DNA of 64,000 bases, taken from a bacterium (GTDB taxonomy: Bacteria; Bacillota; Clostridia; TANB77; RGIG9151). Below are positions 28,420 through 47,348 of the stretch, piece after piece. The stretch is from the NCBI GenBank assembly GCA_963635575.1, contig CAVHFU010000001.1, forward strand, positions 54,720 through 118,719. Direction: 5' to 3'. The notes beneath the pieces were generated by a model. That model did not search any database. It was not told the origin of the DNA and saw nothing but the letters and a program-made list of their open reading frames with translations. Positions within the stretch are counted from its first letter, which is position 1; each line of letters opens with the position of its first letter. The translations under genes were made by a program, and so were the position numbers.

Positions 28420-30906
28420 CTAAAGTTTCTTTTCAATTTCAATAACAACATCATCTATCATTTCCGGTTCATCTACTATAGTTGTAGCTAGCTTTGAATT
28501 TTCACTGGCAAGTAAGTTTTGCATTTCTTCTCTTTCTTTCTCAATCTGCTTAATGTCTTCCTCGGAATTAATTCCGCTAATAGCATTATTCATCTCGATT
28601 TCACTATCAACAATGCTCTTTGCAACAGGCTTTTCACGCAATGTGCAATCGTTCGGATTATACTGTACATAAGGTTCAAAATCATATTCGCTAATATCGA
28701 ATTTCTTCAAATACTTTTTATCTAAGAAATCAGTTACACCCTTACCGAAAATCTGACTGCCTTTAGCATCTCTAGTTCTGTAAAATAGAGTCTTAAACGG
28801 CAATTCGGTTAAATGGAAAGGCTGTATGTTTTGTGTGAAATCTATACCCATACTTATGTTTTCTTTACTTGCCTCTTCCTTCTCAACGTTTGGTATCGGC
28901 TTGGAAGTTACACTGTTTCCTAAGTTCCAATATTCAAATTTACCAAATGCTGTACTCCAATATTCGCTATCTTCCCTATTTGTATCACCAAATACCAGCG
29001 CTGTTTTACTGTTTGATGTAACTACTTCCTTATAAAACTCCATAGATTTATTTCTCTCGAGTTGAGATAAGTTTTGAATTGCAATTGTCATTCCGCAACG
29101 ATATTTTCTAAATAATGTAAAACATGTTTCTGTTTCCTTATTTACAAAGTCAGGGAATTCATCTATGTACATAAAATGAGGTATTCTTGTATTCTCATCG
29201 CCAGGCCTACGTAGTACCGCATCTTGCATAGTCAAAATATAGAACATACCAAAAGGCTTTGAAAGTAGGGCACCTAATTCACCACGTCTTGTACATACAG
29301 ATACACATCCACCCTCAGCTAGTATTCTATCTAAATCTATATTATTGTCTCTACTACATAATATTCTTCTTACCATCTTGTTTCTCATTAAGTTATCAAG
29401 TTGGGTTGTAGCACCATATAAAAACAATTCTGTTTCTTTTCTGTTACTGCCAATAGACCCCATAACCGGTTTGCCATTTACATCAAGTGGTGGATTGTAA
29501 AAATTCTTTTCAAAGTACTTAATTAAAATTGCATGTCTTTCGCTAAGAATCGGATCAAGTTTCATCTCTTCGCACATATCTTCAACAATATTATAATTAT
29601 ATAAACATTCAAGCATATCTTCTAGCGTAGGAATTTGATTGTCATGCATTCTCGGATACATAACTTTAAGTAAAATAGCCAAGTTCTCTAATGCTTGTTG
29701 TGTAACCTGGCCAAAGAACAAGTTACTCGAATCTGGATTTTCACTCTCATACATTCCCTTTAATACAGTAGAGATTATACTTGCAACCTTAGCAGGGCTT
29801 TTATTTATAAATGGATTTATGCCATAAGAATTAGGGTCAATAGGGTCAATTTTATAAACCATAATTCCCAAATTATCAGCAACAACTCTAAAGTCATCAA
29901 TATAATTTCCATCAGGCTCTAATACAGTTATACCAACATCTCTAAATATAAGTTCCTTAGTAACAGGATCTTCACCCTTTATCATAGGTTTTAATATTTC
30001 CATAAATTCCTTTTCTCTTCCATAAATAGGACGTAAAAAGTTAAGAGAAAAACATTTGTTTAATGTTTCATTATCATATGGTGCATTAACATATGCACAA
30101 CCCGCAGTCAATGCTTTATAAGCTAATTCCTTAGCCTTCTCTCTAAAGAAATATTTCTTCTCCAAATCACTTGCACACATAGGCAAAAGTAATGTAGATG
30201 TTTTACCTGTACCGGTAGCACCTTGAACTAAAACTGTCTCCATACGTCTTGCTTCCGTAATCATAACAGGCTTGCCTGTCTTATAATCTTCACAAACCTT
30301 AACCTCGCAAGTCATTTCTCCGACCAATTCCGGATTTGTCTTTGAAGGAATTAAAGATAATTTTTTAAGTTTACCAACCGGATGCTCATTATCAAACAAA
30401 GCCACAACCGTTGTAGGCGTAACAGCAATAGTACAAACAGGAATGTATAAAGTTGCGTAGGCTAAAGCCTCCTTAAATTTATCTTCACCGAACTCCAATC
30501 CAACTCGTAAAATTTCTCCATTTCTAAAAAAGCTACAAAAATACAAAATAAACTCATTAGACCATTGAGCAAGCATTACAAAGCAAATTACAGCAAGTAA
30601 CGCATATGTAACTACATACATCTTCATTTTATTATTTGTATCTGCTGCATACTTTGAAGAACAAAAATATGCAAAACCGGCAAGTGGAAGTAAAAACGAT
30701 AGTGCATATTCTTCCGAGTACCAAAATAGCGATCTATACAATTCATCAGACGGAAGTCTTATACTTTTTCCGCCTAACGTCACGAGCAATGCAATAAGTC
30801 TATTCAAAATAACTAAAACCGTAGCACCATAAAAAATTTTAGTAAGTATTTCAGGTTTATTAAGTTTTTTCTTTATATCTTCAAACAAGGCTATTCCACC
30901 TTTCAT
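28420..30906 (-). CDS. VirD4/TraG/TrwB-like T4CP family ATPase, membrane-anchored, paralog 2
   Basis: Same motif set (VQGATGTGKTSTLLLP, YIDEFPDF, IAIQNLSQL). Colinear with paralog 1 and with longer acidic/coiled C-terminal tail. 828 aa. Confidence 0.55.
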   Translation of the reverse strand: MKGGIALFEDIKKKLNKPEILTKIFYGATVLVILNRLIALLVTLGGKSIRLPSDELYRSLFWYSEEYALSFLLPLAGFAYFCSSKYAADTNNKMKMYVVTYALLAVICFVMLAQWSNEFILYFCSFFRNGEILRVGLEFGEDKFKEALAYATLYIPVCTIAVTPTTVVALFDNEHPVGKLKKLSLIPSKTNPELVGEMTCEVKVCEDYKTGKPVMITEARRMETVLVQGATGTGKTSTLLLPMCASDLEKKYFFREKAKELAYKALTAGCAYVNAPYDNETLNKCFSLNFLRPIYGREKEFMEILKPMIKGEDPVTKELIFRDVGITVLEPDGNYIDDFRVVADNLGIMVYKIDPIDPNSYGINPFINKSPAKVASIISTVLKGMYESENPDSSNLFFGQVTQQALENLAILLKVMYPRMHDNQIPTLEDMLECLYNYNIVEDMCEEMKLDPILSERHAILIKYFEKNFYNPPLDVNGKPVMGSIGSNRKETELFLYGATTQLDNLMRNKMVRRILCSRDNNIDLDRILAEGGCVSVCTRRGELGALLSKPFGMFYILTMQDAVLRRPGDENTRIPHFMYIDEFPDFVNKETETCFTLFRKYRCGMTIAIQNLSQLERNKSMEFYKEVVTSNSKTALVFGDTNREDSEYWSTAFGKFEYWNLGNSVTSKPIPNVEKEEASKENISMGIDFTQNIQPFHLTELPFKTLFYRTRDAKGSQIFGKGVTDFLDKKYLKKFDISEYDFEPYVQYNPNDCTLREKPVAKSIVDSEIEMNNAISGINSEEDIKQIEKEREEMQNLLASENSKLATTIVDEPEMIDDVVIEIEKKL

Positions 30907-31004: not shown

Positions 31005-31046
31005 ATCGGAAAAAAGCAACAGATTTTTAACAAAACCTGTTGCTTT
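31005..31046 (-). terminator. Rho-independent terminator after the murD-like gene
   Basis: AAGCAACAG-N14-CTGTTGCTT stem followed on the minus strand by TTTTTTCC, 4 nt after the stop. Confidence 0.55.
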
Positions 31047-31049
31047 AGC

Positions 31050-32312
31050 TTACTTTTTTATCAATTCCTTAAATTTATTGCCTCTCTCTTCAAAATTCTT
31101 AAAATATCCATAACTTGCAGCAGCCGGAGAAAGTAAGCAAACCTTGCCTTTTTCAGTCACTTCTTTAGCACGTTTTACAGCTTCCTCTAAATCATTTACT
31201 AAAATAGCCCTATTCGGGTTCATCTTGCTATAAATTATTTTACCGGTATCATATGCTAATATAATATTTCTAACATCAGAGTTCGTAAGATATGTTGCAA
31301 AATTATCATAATGTATTCCTCTATCTAAGCCACCAATAATCACAGTATCCACTTCTTTTAAGCTTTCAATTGCGTTAATAGTAGCCTCAGGGATTGTAGA
31401 AATCGAATCATTATAATATTTTATTCCATTAAATTTCCCAACAAACTCAAGTCTATGAGCTAGTCCGGAAAAATCTTTTACTGTCTTCCTAATTTCATCC
31501 TCGCTTATTCCTATTTCCATTGCAACTAGCCTTGCAGCCATAATATTCTTTTTATTATGTTCACCTATTAACTTAGTTTCCACATCATATTCATAAGGAA
31601 ATGCTAGTTTTTTCCCCTTCGCATACTTTTCTATATAGTTTTTAACTAGTTCATTTTCCCTGTTGTAAATCACAACATCATTTTCATCTTGGTGCCTAAA
31701 AATATTTACCTTAGCCAATTGATAATCTTCATAAGACTTATAGTGGTCTAAATGTTCTTCAAAAATATTAAGAATAACCGAAATATGTGGAGAAACGGTC
31801 AAATTCTCAAGCTGGTGAGATGACATTTCACACACAAGTAACGTATCATCCTTAATATCTTCTAAGCACGAAAGTGGCGGAACACCAATATTACCAATAA
31901 GTCTAACGTCAATTCCAGCTCTGCTTAAAATATTATAAATTAAAGTCGTTGTAGTGCTTTTACCCTTTGTGCCGGTAATCCCTATAATATTTTTACCATT
32001 AGCCTTCAAAAGCAAATCTGTTTGAGAAGTAACAATAGACTCCTCTCCCTCAATACCAAAAAAAGGTATCCCCGGAGACTTAATAATAACATCATAGCAT
32101 TTTACTGCCTCCAAATAATTATCCCCAAAGTAAACCTTTTCAGGTGCTTTAATCTCATTCTTATCAGCAATTCCAAGAGAAGCATATTTAACATATTTTT
32201 TTATAAATTCGTAAGTAGACTTACCCTCTCTTCCAAATCCTAGAATCAAAATATTCTTTTCATTTAACATTCCGGCAATTTCATTAATAACCCTCATACT
32301 TTTCCCTTCCAT
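31050..32312 (-). CDS. Mur ligase, UDP-N-acetylmuramoylalanine--glutamate ligase (MurD-like). Not in a division/cell wall (dcw) cluster context; candidate MurD2.
   Basis: GITGTKGKSTTTTL P-loop, Mur ligase middle and C-terminal domains, about 420 aa. Neighbours are a PP-loop protein and a transporter rather than mraY/ftsW. Confidence 0.7.
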   Translation of the reverse strand: MEGKSMRVINEIAGMLNEKNILILGFGREGKSTYEFIKKYVKYASLGIADKNEIKAPEKVYFGDNYLEAVKCYDVIIKSPGIPFFGIEGEESIVTSQTDLLLKANGKNIIGITGTKGKSTTTTLIYNILSRAGIDVRLIGNIGVPPLSCLEDIKDDTLLVCEMSSHQLENLTVSPHISVILNIFEEHLDHYKSYEDYQLAKVNIFRHQDENDVVIYNRENELVKNYIEKYAKGKKLAFPYEYDVETKLIGEHNKKNIMAARLVAMEIGISEDEIRKTVKDFSGLAHRLEFVGKFNGIKYYNDSISTIPEATINAIESLKEVDTVIIGGLDRGIHYDNFATYLTNSDVRNIILAYDTGKIIYSKMNPNRAILVNDLEEAVKRAKEVTEKGKVCLLSPAAASYGYFKNFEERGNKFKELIKK

Positions 32313-32316
32313 ATCA

Positions 32317-33549
32317 TTAAAATTCTCTTAAAAGATAAGGCAAATTATCCTTATACTTTTCTTTTAGTAAGCAAACAGCCTCATTAACCTCTGCCCTTGT
32401 ACCAACACATTCAAACGGCTTAGTCTTGTAAACACCCGTAAGTTCCTTATAGTATCTTTCAAGTTCTTTATCATCTAATAAATTATGTCCAAAAATATCA
32501 ATCATTTCTTGTTCTTCCAAAAAAGGTGCTAAAATAATATACACAAACAAGCATTTCGGACATTTACCACACCAGTCATTGCCACCATTTTTACTTCCAA
32601 CATTGCAACTTCTAAAAATCTTGTGATACTTTTTATACTCAGCAAATTTCTTAGCAATATCAATCTCGCGCATACCTCTAAGCAAACTAAAATAATGTAT
32701 ATATGACGTAATATTCCTCTCAACATACTTAACAAAATCAATTTCAAATTCTAATGACTTAGAATATTGATGATTAGCTCCTGTTTCCTCATCTGTACAC
32801 TCATTTGCACTACTTTCATTAGAAAGCACAACAAACTCACGTCCAGACACAAGTGCACAAAATATGCCTAAAAACGCAAGTGATGCCGAAAACGGCGTAT
32901 GTCCGTTTAAATATCCATTCTTATTTAACTCTAATAAAGTAGGATCAATCTTCCTAATAACTTCAACAGAATCAGCCATTGTATAACCGGCAGTAACCAC
33001 AGTATCAACAGTAGCACCACGCGGATTAACAATAAAGCATGTATTATCTGCATTTTGTGCCTTTAGTAATTCAATAGTAACAACAGAATCTTTACCGCCA
33101 CCAATAGGCACTAAGTTGCCGGAAAAATTATCTATCTTGGATTTCTTAAAAGTAAGAACGGTTGCATTTTCAAAATTAACAAACTCATCATACTGAGCTT
33201 TAATATTATTAACAAACCTAAACTCACCAAGTCCGTTAAAGAAAAGCTTTTTCCAAAATTCAATCTGTTCATCACTTAAGTGTCCAGCATTAATAATTAC
33301 TTTTTTAGGACAAGCACACTTATAATAGCTAATAAGTTCAGCCATTCCTAAATTAAACAGAAAAGCGTCTCTATCAACCAAATTATCCATAACAAAAAAA
33401 TGTTTTTTAATAACATTCAACTTATGTACAAATTTAATATCCCCAAGCGAATAAAAGAAATTTATTTCCAAATCATTTTCATTCTCCCTAAAGGAAAAAC
33501 TATCATAAGATATACTTTCATACTTTTCTCTTAATTCCTCAAAATTCAA
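32317..33549 (-). CDS. PP-loop ATP-pyrophosphatase-fold protein. Candidate UDP-MurNAc-L-Ala-L-Glu epimerase (MurL-like).
   Basis: LVPIGGGKDSVV is an SGGxDS PP-loop motif. C-terminal Cys cluster CGKCPKC. Separated by 4 nt from the MurD-like gene on the same strand. Confidence 0.45.
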   Translation of the reverse strand: MNFEELREKYESISYDSFSFRENENDLEINFFYSLGDIKFVHKLNVIKKHFFVMDNLVDRDAFLFNLGMAELISYYKCACPKKVIINAGHLSDEQIEFWKKLFFNGLGEFRFVNNIKAQYDEFVNFENATVLTFKKSKIDNFSGNLVPIGGGKDSVVTIELLKAQNADNTCFIVNPRGATVDTVVTAGYTMADSVEVIRKIDPTLLELNKNGYLNGHTPFSASLAFLGIFCALVSGREFVVLSNESSANECTDEETGANHQYSKSLEFEIDFVKYVERNITSYIHYFSLLRGMREIDIAKKFAEYKKYHKIFRSCNVGSKNGGNDWCGKCPKCLFVYIILAPFLEEQEMIDIFGHNLLDDKELERYYKELTGVYKTKPFECVGTRAEVNEAVCLLKEKYKDNLPYLLREF

Positions 33550-33555
33550 CTATAC

Positions 33556-34578
33556 TCACGCACCTTTTTTAAAAGCTCTTGACTTATTATGCCCAATAAT
33601 TAGCATTGCAATCAAAAAAATTCCGGCAACTCCCATATAAAAATACAATCCGGCAACAAGATTTGAAAAACCAGCCAAACTAAATAAATATGCAACAAAA
33701 CATATAAATCCAAACTTAAAATTATTTTTCTCAACTCTTGCATATACACCGTATAATGCCCCAACCGCAGTACTCAAGACCGCCAGTAAAAACATAAAGC
33801 CATATAGCAATCCATTTGTAGTACCCGCCAAAGTTGCAATAGGAATTTCCACACCTTGTATTTTATCATAATTTACTAAAAGTGCAAGGTAAATAATATA
33901 ACCCAAAATTCCAATTATAACTCCCGACAAAACACAAGTCACTCTTATTTCTCCCCTACTCTTACAAGCATTTCCCAAAGCCGGAAGAATAGAAAAACTC
34001 ATCACCAAATTATAAGAAACGTATATAATCGAAGAAATAATTGCAGCAATAACTCCATCATAATTAACCTCGTTAATAACACTAAACTTAACAATATCAG
34101 AAACATTAATAGAACGAACGGCTACAAAACAAGTAATAATAATCAAAAGAGGAATTTCGATAGAGCTAACCCCCATAATACCACGAATTCCAACAATAGT
34201 CACAAAAAAAGTAAGAATAGCAAAAATAGCCGCACCAACAGGAGCACTAATACCAAGAGTTTGCTCGAAAAATGCGCCACAACCTGAGAACATCGTCCCG
34301 GCAGTCGCAATTAAGAAAAATGCAAACAAAAAATCAACAAACTTTTTAAACTTGCACCTAAACGCATATCCCAGTGCCACCTCATACGAATCAGACTTGC
34401 TTGTATAACCCATAAGCATAAGTCTTTCACCAAAAATAACAAATAAAACAGACATAAGAATAATTCCAATTAAACCATAAACCCCATAATCAACAAAATA
34501 CTGCCTAATTTCCTGACCGGACGTAAAGCCGGCACCAACAACAGCACCAATAAACGTAAAAGCCAACATAAAAAACAC
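33556..34578 (-). CDS. YkvI-family polytopic membrane transporter-like protein
   Basis: GAGFTSGQEI N-terminal motif. 10-12 TM helices. RBS AAGGGG. Confidence 0.5.
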   Translation of the reverse strand: MFFMLAFTFIGAVVGAGFTSGQEIRQYFVDYGVYGLIGIILMSVLFVIFGERLMLMGYTSKSDSYEVALGYAFRCKFKKFVDFLFAFFLIATAGTMFSGCGAFFEQTLGISAPVGAAIFAILTFFVTIVGIRGIMGVSSIEIPLLIIITCFVAVRSINVSDIVKFSVINEVNYDGVIAAIISSIIYVSYNLVMSFSILPALGNACKSRGEIRVTCVLSGVIIGILGYIIYLALLVNYDKIQGVEIPIATLAGTTNGLLYGFMFLLAVLSTAVGALYGVYARVEKNNFKFGFICFVAYLFSLAGFSNLVAGLYFYMGVAGIFLIAMLIIGHNKSRAFKKGA

Positions 34579-34719
34579 CCCTTAAGCAAATATATTTACT
34601 TAAGGAGCGTTTTATTCCAACCAAAAAACCGCTTTGCCCCCATGTCAAACTTCAATCCATGCAATCATCTTCCAATACAGTTTACATGTTTTCTATTTAT
34701 AGGTATCTTATCTTTTAAG

Positions 34720-35238
34720 CTAATCGATATTATTATTTACTGCAAATAAAGCCGCCTTTGTTCTATCAGTAACATTAATCTTCTTAAAAATGTTATTCAA
34801 GTGATTTTTAACCGTTTTTTCGCTTAAATACAACGTTTTAGCAATATCTTTATTAGTAAGTCCATGAGCAAGTAACCCTAAAACCTCTCTTTCCCTATTA
34901 CTAAGGTGTTCCACTTTACTATTACTCATCTCATTCATTATTCCACCTAAAAGTAGCTTAACACCATATATTTCGCCTTTAACAGAAAATCCGGAATACT
35001 TAATTCCAAAATCAGAAGACATTTTTTCATTATCTTTATTTATGTCATTACTTGTTATCTCTATAACCTTATCAACGCCTAGTTCTTTGGCAACTTTTAA
35101 ATTATTCACAATATCCTTCCGGGTACACAAAAAAGCACAATCTTTTCCATTCAACTGTGCTATTTTGTAATTATCTTTAGTTTCGATTTTATCAAAAAAC
35201 TTTTCTAGTTCTGTATCTCCCATAATGGCTAAACTCAC
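34720..35238 (-). CDS. LuxR/GerE-type HTH transcriptional regulator with uncharacterised N-terminal domain
   Basis: C-terminal LSNREREVLGLLAHGLTNKDIAKTLYLSEKTVKNH (LuxR HTH). Confidence 0.6.
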   Translation of the reverse strand: MSLAIMGDTELEKFFDKIETKDNYKIAQLNGKDCAFLCTRKDIVNNLKVAKELGVDKVIEITSNDINKDNEKMSSDFGIKYSGFSVKGEIYGVKLLLGGIMNEMSNSKVEHLSNREREVLGLLAHGLTNKDIAKTLYLSEKTVKNHLNNIFKKINVTDRTKAALFAVNNNID

Positions 35239-39550: not shown

Positions 39551-40696
39551 TTAAACTTCAGTATTCATAATTTCATTAAATAACTTCCAAAGAATCTCAG
39601 TAGAAAAATTCTCAGTTCTACTTATTCTATGTTGTGCCGCCAATTCATCAGTATAATCCTTTAGTTTGTATGTTGTGTAATAATCGTCTGTATAATGTGT
39701 CACAAGTGGAATTAAAGAATAATCTTTAATCTCAACATTTCCATCCTCATTTCTCTCCAACGTTATATCCGCCATACCACCAAGCAAAGTCGAAATTTTT
39801 CTTTGGTTAGAAATAAAGTTACCCAAAGAATAATAAACAAGTCCGGTATTCCCATTCTCAGTCGTAACCATTTTATATGGTTCTAAAACATGTGGATGTG
39901 CACAAATAACAATGTCTGCACCATTATCTATACACATATCAACATACTTTTTATGATACTTAGTAGGCTTATACACATACTCCGTACCTATATGCAAAAT
40001 AGCAATCATAACATCACTATTCTCTTTAGCAGTCCTCACATTCTCCTTAAGTTCCTCATCATCTCCAAGCAAATCAATCATATATCCTTTATCTTTAGGC
40101 AATGTAAAACCATTTAATCCGTACGTATAATTAACAAAAGAAAGTTTAATGTTATTCTTCTCTAAATACGAAATCTTGCTTTCGTCAGGGCTACTGTGAA
40201 TTCCCAAAACTTCTATTTCAGGATACTTTTCACGCCAAAACTCAAGAGTATCTGTTATTCCGCTAACTCCTTTATCTAACGTATGATTAGTTGCATGAGT
40301 AACAACATCAAATCCAGCCTTTACAACACTATCGCCAACCTGCATTGGGCTTCCGAAAGCCGGATACGAACTATATCTTTTTGGGTCTTTAACAAAAATA
40401 GTTTCTTGATTAATAATAGCAACATCAGCCTTGCTAATGTCGTCCCTAACATTATCAAAAAGCATATCAAAATCATAGCCGTCCTCTGTCCTAGCCGCAA
40501 AATAAATAGTATTGTGAATCAAATCATCGCCAACCATTTTTATATTAAGCCTGTCCGCTTTATCCTCAATAATTTCTTCATTCGGACTTGCCATAACTTC
40601 CTTATCAAAAAATCCGGCACATTTATAAATAGCCACAGTAATAAGCACAATAGCAAAAATTCCGGCACATATTAATATAATTCTCTTCCTATTCAT
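39551..40696 (-). CDS. CapA-family metallophosphatase (poly-gamma-glutamate synthesis-like) with N-terminal membrane anchor
   Basis: MVGDDLIHNTIY...HATNHTLDKG...HIGTEY...CAHPHV calcineurin-like motifs. Start taken at MNRKRII with GAGGTG RBS. Confidence 0.7.
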   Translation of the reverse strand: MNRKRIILICAGIFAIVLITVAIYKCAGFFDKEVMASPNEEIIEDKADRLNIKMVGDDLIHNTIYFAARTEDGYDFDMLFDNVRDDISKADVAIINQETIFVKDPKRYSSYPAFGSPMQVGDSVVKAGFDVVTHATNHTLDKGVSGITDTLEFWREKYPEIEVLGIHSSPDESKISYLEKNNIKLSFVNYTYGLNGFTLPKDKGYMIDLLGDDEELKENVRTAKENSDVMIAILHIGTEYVYKPTKYHKKYVDMCIDNGADIVICAHPHVLEPYKMVTTENGNTGLVYYSLGNFISNQRKISTLLGGMADITLERNEDGNVEIKDYSLIPLVTHYTDDYYTTYKLKDYTDELAAQHRISRTENFSTEILWKLFNEIMNTEV

Positions 40697-40706
40697 ACTC
40701 AGCACC

Positions 40707-41408
40707 TCATAGCATCTCAATATCTATATCATCCAAATCTGCGAAAATTTCAGCATTAGCCTTATCGTCACTCATTACTTCTTCCTTAACACCATTCACT
40801 ATAAACTCCTTTAAGTCAATCTTCATTCCACCAAAAAACAATATTCCATCCTGTATTTTAGAAAAATCATCATATCCGGGAAGAGTCTTGCACATTTTAA
40901 CCTTTTCCTCTAAACATAAATCATTATTAACTCTATTTACTTTCGCAAAATAGGTGACCATAACATTTTTAATTATCCCAGAACGATATTTTATATATGA
41001 TGTAAGTTTATCTTCAGGAATAGAAAAACACTTCCCATGCCAAAAAATTTTTCTATGTGCATCAAAATGATTAAAATAATCAAAAAAATACTGAGAAAAT
41101 AGCGCAATCAATTCCTGTGAATGTGTTGTCTTATCATTTGGCTCTAAGTCCTCAATTACAACATTCGGATTCGGTACAATAAAACTAATTTCATCAGAAC
41201 CAAAAATAGCATAGCAATGATATTTTTCAGTAAAAAATCTCGCTGTCTTTTCTAAACAATCAAAAAAACTACCATCATACTCATCAAGCAAATTAATATC
41301 CTTATTTTTAGTAATTTGCCTGCCGTCAAACCTAAACACCAACGGCATTTTGGTACTTATTCGCATATTGTATTTTTTCTGTAGCTGAAAAAAATAGCTA
41401 TTCCACAT
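40707..41408 (-). CDS. tRNA(His) guanylyltransferase (Thg1)-like protein
   Basis: MPLVFRFDGRQI resembles the Thg1 hallmark (R-x-D-G-R-x-F). About 233 aa. Start taken at MWNS with AAAGGAG RBS. Confidence 0.6.
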   Translation of the reverse strand: MWNSYFFQLQKKYNMRISTKMPLVFRFDGRQITKNKDINLLDEYDGSFFDCLEKTARFFTEKYHCYAIFGSDEISFIVPNPNVVIEDLEPNDKTTHSQELIALFSQYFFDYFNHFDAHRKIFWHGKCFSIPEDKLTSYIKYRSGIIKNVMVTYFAKVNRVNNDLCLEEKVKMCKTLPGYDDFSKIQDGILFFGGMKIDLKEFIVNGVKEEVMSDDKANAEIFADLDDIDIEML

Positions 41409-43659: not shown

Positions 43660-44496
43660 TCAGCCATATAGATTCAATATCATCTCCGATATTGTTTTTA
43701 TAACTTCGGAATATTGGATATTCCCCACGAAATAATTTTTGCTTTTAAATTGATTCCACATATTTTCCATCTCTTTACTTGTAGCTAAATTTTTAAGTTC
43801 TGTATCCACTTTTTCTTTCGAGAATATAGTCCCTCGTTTTTTACATGTCGAATCAAATGCCTCTCTATAAATATTCCATGAAAAGTCTAGTTTTTGGGCA
43901 ATTTCATATAAGTCATAAAAATCTCTCATTCTTGTATTTGCCAACCCTCGGCTTATAATTGTTTGAGATTTTTCAGCAAGAAGAGTCTCAATGTTATATG
44001 TATTTAAGGATATATTTCTTTCTTCAAACATTAAAGGATATTTATACTCTATTGCACCCATCGTAATAACATCATCCGTTGATACATCTATCTTTATAGG
44101 TTGTTTTAAATCTCCAAGCAATGCCTCTAAATGAATACGAATCCCAGGATAATCAAATTCATCCATGATTGTTTCTATATCTACAATTCTGAATGATATG
44201 TTATCTTCTACTGTTATTTCACATATTTCTAGTATTATTTCTCCCAATTTTTCTTTCGAAAGAGGAAGTGCTCTTACCGTAGCATCAATATCCATTGTTG
44301 TTCTTAAGTTTATTCCAATAAGTGAGGATACTAGCATCCCACCTTTAAGTACAAACCTTTCCTTATATTTTGATAATGAAATTCGTTCTAAAAAGCGTTC
44401 CATAAAAAATATTCTTATCATAGCTTGTGCTATCTTACTATCACCTTTAGAAATGTTCCTTACCTTTGCTTTAAGTCCGATAGCAGATTTTATCAT
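43660..44496 (-). CDS. AbiEii/AbiGii-family nucleotidyltransferase toxin (type IV TA / abortive infection)
   Basis: FVLKGGMLVSSL...RTTMDIDATV matches the GG...R-x-S/T-x-D-h-D nucleotidyltransferase motif of the AbiEii family. Overlaps the upstream partner by 4 nt. Confidence 0.7.
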   Translation of the reverse strand: MIKSAIGLKAKVRNISKGDSKIAQAMIRIFFMERFLERISLSKYKERFVLKGGMLVSSLIGINLRTTMDIDATVRALPLSKEKLGEIILEICEITVEDNISFRIVDIETIMDEFDYPGIRIHLEALLGDLKQPIKIDVSTDDVITMGAIEYKYPLMFEERNISLNTYNIETLLAEKSQTIISRGLANTRMRDFYDLYEIAQKLDFSWNIYREAFDSTCKKRGTIFSKEKVDTELKNLATSKEMENMWNQFKSKNYFVGNIQYSEVIKTISEMILNLYG

Positions 44497-45086
44497 AGCA
44501 TCACCTCAACATATTTCATTATTTCATCCCTTATTTTTAATTGCTCTCCGTACTGTATAAGTCTCGACATATTCTTTGACTTGTCACGCATGAATGTTTT
44601 CATAGCTGTTTGGAACTGTTGCACTTCAACATTTTTTCTGTTTTTAACAATATCGCAAATGCATCTTTCTTTATTATATGTCCTAACCATATTTCCGTAA
44701 TTTGTTTTAACTTCATCAACACCTAATCGATATATTGACTGTTTTTCCTGATGTATGATCACACCTTTATTTCTCAACCGCGTCTGATTAAAACGTGGGG
44801 GTACAGTAATATAAATATCTGTATACTCTCTGTCTAACATACCTTGCAAATACAAAGCTGTTTCTCCTGAATAAATAATATTCGGATTGCAAACTTGAAG
44901 AATATATAACTCATCCGCCCATGCATCCTGTGAAATGTAAATTCCTTTTGCTACTCTCTCTAAATGATTTTCAAACACAAATTTTGCCAAATATGCTCGT
45001 GAAATACCTGCTTTTTCGACTTGTGCTGTAAATAGATATCCATTATTCTCTTGTAACAATTCACTCATTTGCTCGTATTTATTCAT
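44493..45086 (-). CDS. AbiEi-family antitoxin/transcriptional regulator
   Basis: About 197 aa. N-terminal wHTH-like segment (GYLFTAQVEKAGISRAYLAKFV). Partner position upstream of AbiEii. RBS GGTGGTGA. Confidence 0.65.
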   Translation of the reverse strand: MNKYEQMSELLQENNGYLFTAQVEKAGISRAYLAKFVFENHLERVAKGIYISQDAWADELYILQVCNPNIIYSGETALYLQGMLDREYTDIYITVPPRFNQTRLRNKGVIIHQEKQSIYRLGVDEVKTNYGNMVRTYNKERCICDIVKNRKNVEVQQFQTAMKTFMRDKSKNMSRLIQYGEQLKIRDEIMKYVEVML

Positions 45087-45251: not shown

Positions 45252-47339
45252 TTATACCAACCTATCTATCGCATCAGAAACAATAACATATAAATCCTGA
45301 AGCGTTATAACATCGTACATTGTCTTGACATTAACATTGTCAAAATGTCCATTTGCGCTAGCAATTAAATAAATTTCAAGATCACTAAATTCTTCATCAT
45401 ATTCCCCAAAAAGTTTAGAAATCATCCTTGACATAGTAATCATATTTAGTTCATCATTCGAACTAAAAGCCTTAATATCCTCAATAATTTCCTCTGAAAC
45501 ATCAAGTTTCATTCTCTTAATCATTTGAGTAATGCAAGTAACAGCATTCTTATTAATAGCAATATTATCAAGCTTAAAATCATTATCATATCCACCGGTA
45601 ATAATACCCAAATCAACAAATCTTTCAATCTTATCCTTATTGTATAATCCATTAAAAGGCCCTGGAATATCGTACTCAGGTAAATAAACACCTCGGCTTA
45701 CCAACAACTCGTTTATTTCCTCATTCATTTCAACGCTTCCGATAATACCTCGTGGCGTCACATCATTAAAAATAGAATACATTGAAATAATTCCAACAGA
45801 TTCGCCCATAACCATACCTGTCGGAACAACTCTAGCACTTCCGGCAGCAACAGAGCTAAACGAAGCAGCCTTTCCAACTATGTATAAATTATCGATCTTT
45901 TGAGGAACAGCACACCTATACGGTATAGAATACTGACTAGGAGCCAAAACAACATATCCGTAATTATCCTTGCTTGTCGACTGAATATCCACCGGATAAG
46001 ATCCCATAGCAATCTTATCCGAAAAATTTCTGTTATTAAGTAAATCACTCGCCTGTAAAACATACTCGCCTTGGATATGCCTGGTCTCTCTTACATAAAG
46101 TTCACTTGCAGTTCCAAGTAAGTACGCATTTTGGAAAGAATCAAGTCTTGTCTTTAGGTACTTAACAATATTTTGAGCCTCTCTTGTCCCATAATAAATA
46201 GCATCATTAACACTATTCTCATCTTCAATATTCACATTAAAAATCTGTAATGCGTTAAGTAAAATCGTTCCATCGTTTTGCCTTCCGAAGTTAGGACCTC
46301 TAAGACGCATATTATCAAACTCAGGAGTGTACTTATCATAGCACCATTTACCAAATCCCCAAGCACTATCCTCAGTAACACCACAACCGGTATCCCCTGT
46401 CTCGTCCATATACTTTTTCATATCATCCTTTAGCACTTCCCAGTCAACACCGCCAACCTTAAAGCAAAGCGTCACACACATTATATCATCAGAATTAATA
46501 TCTTCCATACCAACATAATACGGAACACCGGCATTCGCACAAACATCACCATCTTGAGTCGCATCTATAATACGTCTACCGTAGAATTCTTTAAGCACCG
46601 AATTCTCATCAAAAACCCTAATACCGGTAATGGTATTTCCCTCAATAATCGCCTCGCCAAACGAATAATTCTTTCTGTAATCGATATTCGGTTCATTCGC
46701 CACCATATCTTCAAAAATTTTCTTAACCTCATTTACATCAAAAGACTCTTTTCTTCCTTCTCGATTATAAAACTCTTCAAAAATACCCTTAGTAAGTAAT
46801 TCCCCATCTTTAGAATAACTCATATCTAAAGTATTTAGCATCCCAAAAGTAAAAAGTCCGCCAAGTCCATCCTCTTCACTAATTAATAACACCTTTCCGC
46901 CACTTCTCGCAGTGGCAATACTAGCCGCAATTCCTTCCGGATCTCCGCCCATAACTATAACATCATAAAAATTATCTGCATAAAACCTTTTGTGGAAAAA
47001 GCTAATAGGAAAATAAACCTTTCCGTCATCACCTAGAACAGTATTTCCAGCCAAAATATAATCTGCCTTAAAATCCATTTTCCTATCATTTATAAAAAAC
47101 GGATTAATATATGAACCAATCTTTACCTTATTAGTACCAATTTTAAAATAATAATTAGTATTATCAACATTAAAATTAACAATGCTAGAATTAGAATATA
47201 CCAAAACATCAGTATTCCATATCTTTCGAACTGCATCCTCAGATATATACCAAGTATCCTCTATCTTCTTTGTATCCTCCGCAAAAGAAAAACTAAACAT
47301 CATCAAAAAACAAACCAAAACGCTGATAAACTTTTTCAT
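45252..47339 (-). CDS. Secreted FAD-dependent oxidoreductase-family protein (paralog A)
   Basis: Signal peptide MKKFISVLVCFLMMFSFSFA. VIVMGGDPEGIAASIATARSGGKVLLIS is a GxGxxG-like dinucleotide fold. 695 aa. Confidence 0.55.
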   Translation of the reverse strand: MKKFISVLVCFLMMFSFSFAEDTKKIEDTWYISEDAVRKIWNTDVLVYSNSSIVNFNVDNTNYYFKIGTNKVKIGSYINPFFINDRKMDFKADYILAGNTVLGDDGKVYFPISFFHKRFYADNFYDVIVMGGDPEGIAASIATARSGGKVLLISEEDGLGGLFTFGMLNTLDMSYSKDGELLTKGIFEEFYNREGRKESFDVNEVKKIFEDMVANEPNIDYRKNYSFGEAIIEGNTITGIRVFDENSVLKEFYGRRIIDATQDGDVCANAGVPYYVGMEDINSDDIMCVTLCFKVGGVDWEVLKDDMKKYMDETGDTGCGVTEDSAWGFGKWCYDKYTPEFDNMRLRGPNFGRQNDGTILLNALQIFNVNIEDENSVNDAIYYGTREAQNIVKYLKTRLDSFQNAYLLGTASELYVRETRHIQGEYVLQASDLLNNRNFSDKIAMGSYPVDIQSTSKDNYGYVVLAPSQYSIPYRCAVPQKIDNLYIVGKAASFSSVAAGSARVVPTGMVMGESVGIISMYSIFNDVTPRGIIGSVEMNEEINELLVSRGVYLPEYDIPGPFNGLYNKDKIERFVDLGIITGGYDNDFKLDNIAINKNAVTCITQMIKRMKLDVSEEIIEDIKAFSSNDELNMITMSRMISKLFGEYDEEFSDLEIYLIASANGHFDNVNVKTMYDVITLQDLYVIVSDAIDRLV
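45261..45333. repeat. 73-bp direct repeat, copy 2 (in situ 3' end of the oxidoreductase gene)
   Basis: Identical to 43576-43648. Encodes the C-terminal ...LQDLYVIVSDAIDRLV. Confidence 0.7.
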
Positions 47340-47348
47340 TAGTACCTC

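Follow-up and report, generated by a model that had tools for sequence, protein, structure and literature searches.

The MurL/MurD2 pathway, a route to the D-glutamate (D-Glu) of the peptidoglycan stem peptide, was discovered in Xanthomonas oryzae, where MurL is encoded by XOO_1319 and MurD2 by XOO_1320, and orthologues occur in Micromonospora and Salinispora (Feng et al. 2017, reviewed in PMC8788868, PMC5808125). MurL consumes one ATP, releases AMP, converts L to D unidirectionally and is described as having 'no known conserved domains' (PMC8788868, PMC5808125). Reports place the pathway in Xanthomonadales, in some Alphaproteobacteria and in rare actinomycetes; homologues of low similarity are also reported from cyanobacteria, one fungus and one amoeba (PMC8788868, PMC5808125). 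In all organisms reported, the pair replaces the racemase route and does not supplement it, and it has been promoted as a narrow-spectrum drug target on the assumption that only Xanthomonas, Stenotrophomonas and a few other genera possess it (PMC8788868). In the literature searched, no mention was found of MurL in Firmicutes or Bacteroidetes, or of MurL in connection with a PP-loop. Here we describe a putative MurL/MurD2 pair in a 64,000-nucleotide stretch of DNA, called the window below (GenBank assembly GCA_963635575.1, contig CAVHFU010000001.1, positions 54,720 to 118,719), whose host is identified from its sequence as an uncultured spore-forming human-gut Clostridium. The pair consists of two adjoining minus-strand open reading frames (ORFs) that encode proteins of 410 and 420 amino acids (Table 1).

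The 410-amino-acid protein is, by its sequence matches, a MurL homologue. Its sole match in NCBIfam is the MurL model NF041275 (E 3e-79, 266.6 bits, profile positions 66-396 of 447), and in BLASTP it is 35% identical over 317 residues (E 2e-59) to the Xanthomonas sacchari protein that is named MurL by the Prokaryotic Genome Annotation Pipeline (PGAP). The X. sacchari gene was found by tblastn of plasmid records on a 508-kb replicon, and its product scores 836.5 bits on NF041275. This 'plasmid' record is probably chromosomal, because it carries core genes (lysA/aspartate kinase and ssb). A scan of the 410-amino-acid protein with a Pfam model set that lacks the MurL models gave only a sub-threshold match to DUF6395. 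The two Pfam MurL models, PF26299 (MurL_N) and PF26298 (MurL_epimerase_C), are precomputed on all of the top 120 homologues, including one that is 98% identical (P0001), and the MurL_N/MurL_epimerase_C architecture of the window protein is read indirectly through these proteins. The initial annotation had pointed to a PP-loop (IGGGKDS) and a C-terminal CGKCPKC cluster, and both were confirmed: PIGGGKDS occupies residues 148-155 and WCGKCPKC residues 326-333, and the two motifs are invariant in 32 homologues and in a set of nine MurL proteins taken from the window, X. sacchari, Pseudonocardia and metagenome-assembled genomes (MAGs) of Bacteroidetes, Lactobacillales and Clostridia. The alignment of these nine has 51 invariant positions, among them those of the motifs GGG.DS, G-H-.-P, SNE.SA, NHQ.SK, SCN, WC..C.KC and KPFEC.G. 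At E<=1e-5, MurL homologues form at least 8000 clusters at 90% identity.

The 420-amino-acid product is, judged by its profile matches, a complete MurD-type ligase, as had been proposed: it scores 327 bits on TIGR01087 (cut-off 212) and contains both Mur_ligase_M and Mur_ligase_C. TIGR01087 cannot separate specificity for D-Glu from specificity for L-glutamate (L-Glu), because a bona fide MurD2, that of X. sacchari, passes it too (298 bits; PGAP name 'D-glutamate ligase'). At the positions of stereospecificity, E197, R358, P433 and F435 of MurD2 replace D182, K348, A414 and L416 of Escherichia coli MurD; the double mutation E197D/R358K turns MurD2 into a D-Glu ligase, and K319T makes E. coli MurD accept L-Glu (PMC8788868). 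These positions were read from a MAFFT alignment. X. sacchari MurD2 validates it, since its residues in the four published columns are E, R, P and F. At the positions of E. coli D182, K319, K348 and L416, the window ligase has E186, I304, R331 and Y401, and X. sacchari MurD2 has E206, I339, R367 and F445. Lys is kept at position 319 in four canonical MurD proteins (E. coli, Streptococcus agalactiae, Thermotoga maritima and Pseudomonas aeruginosa), and we infer from the K319T result of PMC8788868 that its loss is a defining feature of MurD2. A survey of the 150 best-scoring representatives of 50%-identity clusters gave a similar pattern. The K319 position is Ile in 133, Leu in six, Met in one, Gln in one and Lys in none (the motif was not found in nine); the D182 position is Glu in 126, the K348 position is Arg in 131 and Lys in five, and the L416 position is always Tyr or Phe. 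The switch residues and the linkage to murL suggest that the window ligase is specific for L-Glu. The MurD2 assignment rests on these two lines of evidence, because overall similarity does not tie the subfamily to Xanthomonas MurD2.

The ligase gene directly follows murL in the window and in nine other loci: L002 (a nearly identical MAG contig), L003 (an 88%-identical locus), L004/L005 (a Clostridiales MAG with a MurL 63% identical to that of the window), L006 (a Bacteroidetes MAG), L007 (a Lactobacillales MAG), L008 (a 216-kb contig), L012 and L013 (both from closer relatives) and X. sacchari. The flanking genes differ between loci, and the murL-ligase pair thus behaves as a module. Natural fusions of the two proteins make up ten of the 150 ligase representatives, nine in the order MurL-ligase and one in the order ligase-MurL. 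These metagenomic proteins are 724-923 amino acids long and match the MurL profile at E 1e-104 to 1e-192 (P0248, P0255, P0283, P0309, P0315, P0344, P0353, P0369, P0375 and P0389). The MurD2/MurL pathway that the initial annotation had proposed thereby gains support from several sides: membership of the MurL family, the Glu, Arg and Ile residues of the ligase, the pairing across phyla and the fusions. It is likely that the pair performs ligation of L-Glu followed by ATP-dependent epimerization, the enzymatic activities being assigned by homology with the characterized enzymes of Xanthomonas, Micromonospora and Salinispora (PMC8788868). In the proposed mechanism, an operon of a ykvI-like permease gene, murL and the murD2-type ligase gene would supply D-Glu at position 2 of the stem peptide without free D-Glu. 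The ligase would add L-Glu to uridine diphosphate-N-acetylmuramoyl-L-alanine (UDP-MurNAc-L-Ala), with hydrolysis of ATP to ADP and phosphate by the standard acyl-phosphate mechanism of Mur ligases. MurL would then spend a second ATP, yielding AMP and pyrophosphate, to adenylate the terminal L-Glu at its alpha-carboxylate, and the alpha-proton would thereby be acidified.

A structural model of MurL is consistent with this chemistry. The AlphaFold2 model, built on 32 homologues, has a mean predicted local distance difference test score (pLDDT) of 94.7 and a predicted template modelling score (pTM) of 0.93. Its best Foldseek matches in the PDB are QatC of the QatABCD defence system (E 5e-5) and Bacillus subtilis QueC (E 5e-4), followed by Cap9, YcfA, TtuA, ThiI, argininosuccinate synthase (ArgG) and NAD synthetase (NadE). 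All of these are PP-loop ATP pyrophosphatases, and QatC, QueC, Cap9 and YcfA are QueC-like. When the PDB was searched by sequence with MurL, no relative of solved structure was found. The family profile segment 'lvpiGGGkDs' aligns to 'lvavSGGKDS' of TtuA (E 0.0013). The fold of MurL, as modelled, is that of a QueC-like PP-loop protein with a four-cysteine cluster. The arrangement of C315, C327, C330 and C333 presumably resembles the zinc site of QueC, and the cluster is probably a QueC-like site that would bind zinc. QueC-like enzymes also have a C-terminal cysteine cluster and activate a carboxylate by adenylation. The use of one ATP, the release of AMP and the one-way conversion are the expected result of a PP-loop enzyme that adenylates the alpha-carboxylate. 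The invariant residues C381, H217, H260 and K264 may have roles in proton transfer, with C381 as the candidate proton-transfer residue. For an enzyme that has been reviewed as one that 'lacks known conserved domains', the high-confidence QueC-like PP-loop model provides a specific structural hypothesis.

Several observations weigh against the assignment of the pair to the MurL/MurD2 pathway. At the position of E. coli A414, the window ligase has Ala (A399) and not the P433 of MurD2 (P443 in X. sacchari). Asp stands in place of Glu at the D182 position in some MurL-linked ligases (those of L007 and L008, and 15 of the 150 representatives), and canonical streptococcal MurD, too, has Arg at the K348 position. 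By the ligase-subfamily profile, no closer overall similarity was found to Xanthomonas MurD2 than to canonical MurD proteins: MurL-linked ligases score 529-627 bits, and the Xanthomonas enzyme (X. sacchari MurD2, 263) falls among the canonical MurD proteins of S. agalactiae (325), T. maritima (258) and E. coli (252). The ligase shares no more exclusive positions with MurD2 than with single canonical MurD proteins. A grouping of the ligase with Xanthomonas MurD2 by overall similarity or by exclusive residues was thus rejected by both tests, and the two kinds of ligase possibly have independent origins. Lone murL genes without an adjacent ligase occur on one Bacteroidales MAG contig and on Pseudonocardia plasmids, so the MurL family need not be monofunctional. 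Finally, the 410-amino-acid protein lies below the 700-bit equivalog cut-off of NF041275, a model named for Xanthomonadales. The shortfall says nothing against membership of the family, because all non-Xanthomonadales homologues tested fall below the cut-off as well (Pseudonocardia 323 bits, Bacteroidetes MAG 283, Lactobacillales MAG 260), and the cut-off seems to mark off the order, not the family. The Pseudonocardia homologues (NF041275 323 bits) are encoded on the Pseudonocardia alni plasmid pPaSha1 (L011, 4764..6164) and on two other Pseudonocardia plasmids; these are mobilizable plasmids on which the gene lies beside genes for a WD40 protein and a ParA-like protein with no adjacent Mur ligase, and the enzyme might have a different substrate there.

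Part of this evidence would also suit an ordinary, D-Glu-adding MurD beside a MurL homologue that corrects a mis-made L-Glu precursor or acts on some other carboxylate. The ligase clears the TIGR01087 cut-off, its overall resemblance to Xanthomonas MurD2 is no greater than that to canonical S. agalactiae MurD, and lone MurL homologues exist. The TIGR01087 score is, however, not discriminating, since X. sacchari MurD2 passes as well; the ligase lacks K319 and carries the Glu/Arg switch residues, and its strict adjacency to and fusion with MurL across phyla would be hard to explain by an unrelated function. We regard this explanation as very improbable. A still weaker case can be made for a tRNA-modifying PP-loop enzyme of the TilS, TtcA or TtuA type that merely neighbours a murD gene. 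The PP-loop segment does align to TtuA, and TtuA, ThiI and MnmA are among the weaker fold matches, but the similarity to tRNA-thiolation enzymes (E ~1e-3) does not extend beyond some 33 residues at the PP-loop. Over its full length the protein matches MurL, the linkage to a Mur ligase is conserved, and no TilS or TtcA model in Pfam or NCBIfam matches at E<0.01. The clustering with TilS/TtcA that the initial annotation had named as the contrary outcome was thus not found, and this identity is effectively refuted.

A further question is whether the MurL/MurD2 pair would be the main route or an auxiliary one, with a canonical murD and murI (or a D-amino-acid aminotransferase gene) elsewhere in the genome and the pair serving the spore cortex or conditions of D-Glu limitation. 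The neighbourhood has a sporulation flavour that is conserved in relatives (gpr and the GerE-type regulator gene; in L012 also spoIID, a SleB-like hydrolase gene and murA), which would fit an auxiliary role. Evidence on the other side comes from the division and cell wall (dcw) gene cluster of two relatives. The contig that carries MurL P0034 (65% identical) has gpr, a gerE-like gene, the permease gene, murL, the ligase gene and one small gene, followed directly by a dcw cluster of mraZ, rsmH, a 160-amino-acid ORF (presumed ftsL), a gene for a spoVD-type penicillin-binding protein, murE (meso-diaminopimelate type, 599 bits), mraY, ftsW/spoVE and polA. On the 87.9-kb contig that carries MurL P0005 (77% identical), the same short dcw cluster, with mraY, ftsW/spoVE and polA, lies about 16 kb from murL. 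Neither contig has a murD between mraY and ftsW/spoVE, and the MurL-linked ligase gene is the only MurD-type gene in the approximately 37 kb and 27 kb of sequence of these two relatives. Within the window, Pfam scanning of 45 ORFs of at least 150 amino acids (one more, a cysteine desulfurase fragment, with NCBIfam only) found no dcw gene, in agreement with the initial description of a ligase gene outside any visible dcw cluster, and no Asp_Glu_race (murI) or Aminotran_4 (dat) match; there is also no second murD in the 64 kb. Moreover, the racemase is replaced and not supplemented in all organisms covered by PMC8788868. The auxiliary role is therefore judged unlikely. Because the murD slot is empty and the MurL-linked gene is the sole MurD-type gene in the two relatives, a housekeeping role is favoured, and the chance that the pair is the organism's main route to D-Glu for peptidoglycan seems somewhat better than even.

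A broader reading joins these points. Spore-forming gut Clostridia would, as a whole clade, make peptidoglycan without glutamate racemase, and so, by extension, would many MAG lineages of Bacteroidetes and of Lactobacillales-like bacteria; the ligase of the MurL route, with its Glu/Ile/Arg signature, at least 150 clusters at 50% identity and occasional fusion to MurL, would have become specific for L-Glu independently of Xanthomonas MurD2; and MurL would adenylate its substrate as a zinc-containing PP-loop enzyme of the QueC-like type, with the invariant Cys381 in proton transfer. Taken as a whole, this picture is tentative and falls a little short of an even chance. The pathway type is already known, and the Pfam MurL models already match these proteins; it is the occurrence in Firmicutes that is unreported in the literature searched. 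The QueC-like PP-loop assignment, the Glu/Ile/Arg signature of the ligase and the natural fusions are useful additions to that literature.

The coordinates of the locus are collected in Table 1. From the small gaps between the genes and the terminator after the ligase gene, the permease, murL and ligase genes look like one transcription unit closed by an intrinsic terminator. The permease stop codon and the murL start are separated by 6 nt. The 4-nt coupling of murL and the ligase gene given in the initial annotation holds for the first ATG of the ligase ORF. A second ATG at 32297, five codons in, has a far better Shine-Dalgarno sequence (GGAAGGG) and equals the start used in L003, and for these reasons the true start is probably ATG 32297 and the gap probably 19 nt. 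For the permease gene, the probable start is ATG 34569, which is preceded by AAGGGG. The YkvI-like transporter gene had been placed after the pair in the same orientation; the family and the strand stand, and the gene (34569..33556) is the first, not the last, in the direction of transcription.

Table 1. Features of the putative permease-murL-ligase operon (window coordinates)
Feature	Position	Strand	Remark
YkvI-family membrane permease	33556..34578	-	first gene of putative operon; ORF listed from GTG 34578
MurL homologue, 410 amino acids	33549..32317	-	TTG start; second gene of putative operon
MurD-type ligase, 420 amino acids	32312..31050	-	last gene of putative operon
PP-loop GGGKDS, MurL residues 150-155	33085..33102	-	predicted ATP pyrophosphatase/adenylation site
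Cys cluster C315, C327, C330, C333 (SCN ... WCGKCPKC)	32551..32607	-	all four invariant
KPFECVG motif, MurL residues 377-383	32401..32421	-	with invariant C381; motif invariant from Xanthomonas and Pseudonocardia to the window
Intrinsic terminator, 15-bp hairpin then U-run	31010..31046	-	after ligase stop; -18.2 kcal/mol, z -5.0
19-bp hairpin and U-run before permease ATG	34572..34613	-	-24.6 kcal/mol, z -6.75

No convincing sigma-70 promoter was found in the 140-nt spacer upstream of the permease gene. The spacer ends in the 19-bp hairpin, which encloses the permease Shine-Dalgarno sequence and stops 2 nt before the ATG. A counterpart lies at the same place in L002 and L003, with base changes in both arms (read by eye), and none is present in L012 or L013. 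Because it is kept in the closest relatives only, the hairpin is treated as a terminator of the upstream gene, which it probably is; it is possibly regulatory and may double as a translational attenuator. A known riboswitch was rejected, since Rfam (at gathering thresholds) gave no match; a scan of the whole window with Rfam and for tRNAs gave none either.

The permease itself has no direct match in Pfam or NCBIfam. Relatives named 'YkvI family membrane protein' are 32-36% identical (E ~1e-40), a few of them carry PF03845, and the protein is classed by this similarity as a divergent member of the YkvI family. Its gene is the immediate upstream neighbour of murL in the window, L002, L003, L012 and L013, and nine further pairs of MurL and permease matches are listed with longest contigs of equal size, down to about 65% MurL identity. 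The permease gene is absent from the position next to murL in the more distant loci L004-L008. A role of the permease in the supply or uptake of glutamate is conjecture.

By its gene content, the window encodes core chromosomal functions. It has 33% G+C and a GC skew that is negative throughout, and its housekeeping genes include lgt, rseP, cdsA, uppS, frr, genes for pilB/pilT-type ATPases, ribF, rsmD, infC, yebC and truB. A SpoVB/MurJ-like flippase, the spore protease gene gpr and several SLH-domain proteins are also encoded, and gpr and the gene for the GerE-type regulator lie directly upstream of the operon. When a collection of species-representative genomes was searched with the MurL protein, only two MAG contigs matched (14.4 and 5.5 kb). 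One, from an 'uncultured Clostridia bacterium' of a Hadza gut metagenome, encodes a MurL that is 99% identical, has DNA that is 95-98% identical and shows the same gene order; the other, from an 'uncultured Eubacteriales bacterium', encodes a MurL that is 88% identical.

Between the GerE-type regulator gene and the permease gene, L002 (2563..3818) and L013 carry glyA (serine hydroxymethyltransferase, 661 bits), and the window has only about 92 unrelated bases at this position (34629..34720). Either an indel between strains has affected a gene that is normally essential, or the assemblies differ. The interval between glyA and the permease gene in L013 (~8700..8920) contains a near-perfect inverted repeat with arms of about 90 bp, where a 296-nt region folds at -123 kcal/mol; the repeat may be what is left of a mobile element, or it may have arisen in assembly. 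Directly downstream of the operon terminator, tandem paralogues of 798 and 828 amino acids (26005..30906, minus strand; ~73% DNA identity) encode membrane-anchored P-loop proteins that are distant kin of VirD4/TraG coupling proteins (TraG-D_C, T4SS-DNA_transf). They match the CD1115 family model NF045973 at E 1e-7 to 1e-10 and, weakly, mad8 of PADLOC. No other conjugation genes lie nearby, and the paralogues are present in L002 and do not follow the ligase gene in L012 or L013.

Other genes of the window are recorded here for their own sake. Six kilobases upstream of the operon, a PGA_cap (CapA-family) protein (39551..40720, minus strand) weakly matches MslH, the epimerase of the C-terminal Trp of a lasso peptide (E 6e-11); it may be another D-amino-acid-related enzyme, and its gene lies beside those for a U32 peptidase and a radical-SAM activase-like protein. 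A toxin-antitoxin pair of the abortive-infection type, AbiEi/AbiEii (43660..45086, minus strand), has strong PADLOC matches and lies amid housekeeping genes. Two adjoining large paralogous oxidoreductases of 695 and 654 amino acids (45252..49313, minus strand; PF12831) depend on flavin adenine dinucleotide (FAD). A HipA-like kinase (61041..61937, minus strand) matches the PADLOC candidate PDC-M03A, and in L016 a small helix-turn-helix gene lies beside it.

The present annotation of the pathway invites error. MurD2 is called a 'D-glutamate ligase' even in Xanthomonas, and MurL proteins outside the Xanthomonadales are left as 'hypothetical protein', so metabolic reconstructions would wrongly report a missing source of D-Glu. 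In X. sacchari (NZ_CP010410.1; L010, 6124..7560), the MurD2 orthologue beside murL carries the name 'UDP-N-acetylmuramoyl-L-alanine--D-glutamate ligase', a systematic misannotation. The few MurL homologues with a name are 'hypothetical protein' throughout and come from Clostridiales, Clostridia, Lactobacillales, Bacteroidetes and Bacteroidales MAGs. The initial remark that the pathway is rarely annotated in Firmicutes agrees with these names and with an NCBIfam cut-off that excludes the proteins; it needs qualification in that the Pfam MurL models already match them. Inhibitors of the pathway could also hit gut commensals, because the module occurs in a gut Clostridium and has at least 8000 related clusters at 90% identity.

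Compared with the Xanthomonas system, the window has the same two genes in the same order, murL then ligase, with tight spacing as in the X. sacchari locus. The window MurL shares all family-invariant motifs with Xanthomonas MurL, and the window ligase has Glu, Ile, Arg and an aromatic residue at the stereospecificity positions, as does Xanthomonas MurD2. In contrast, the host belongs to the Firmicutes, outside the published distribution, and a YkvI-family permease gene is added upstream. The window MurL is only 35% identical to its Xanthomonas counterpart, is shorter (410 versus 451 amino acids) and lacks the C-terminal extension; overall similarity gives the window ligase no special tie to Xanthomonas MurD2, and the ligase has Ala instead of Pro at the A414 position. 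Canonical MurD proteins (E. coli, S. agalactiae 3LK7 and T. maritima 4BUC) share with the window ligase the three-domain architecture of Mur ligases, about 30% identity, the pass on TIGR01087, the P-loop GxxGKST, H183, the carbamylated-Lys position K198, N268 and R302. The window ligase departs from them in the changes of K319 to Ile and D182 to Glu and of the 'SLD' motif to 'SYG', and its gene is coupled to murL instead of lying between mraY and ftsW.

The best structural matches to the MurL model are the QueC-like proteins, namely QueC (3BL5, 7-cyano-7-deazaguanine synthase), QatC (9Y01/9Y02), Cap9 (9NTO) and YcfA (9KQ6). Sequence identity to them is negligible (12-16%), and MurL has an additional N-terminal MurL_N domain of about 135 amino acids and motifs of its own (SNE.SA, NHQ.SK and KPFEC.G). 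The product of MurL is an epimer instead of an amide or a nitrile. MurI, with D-amino-acid aminotransferase, achieves the same outcome as MurL, D-Glu in the stem peptide, by an unrelated fold and chemistry: it is cofactor-independent and reversibly racemizes free glutamate, whereas MurL acts on a nucleotide-linked dipeptide, consumes ATP and is unidirectional.

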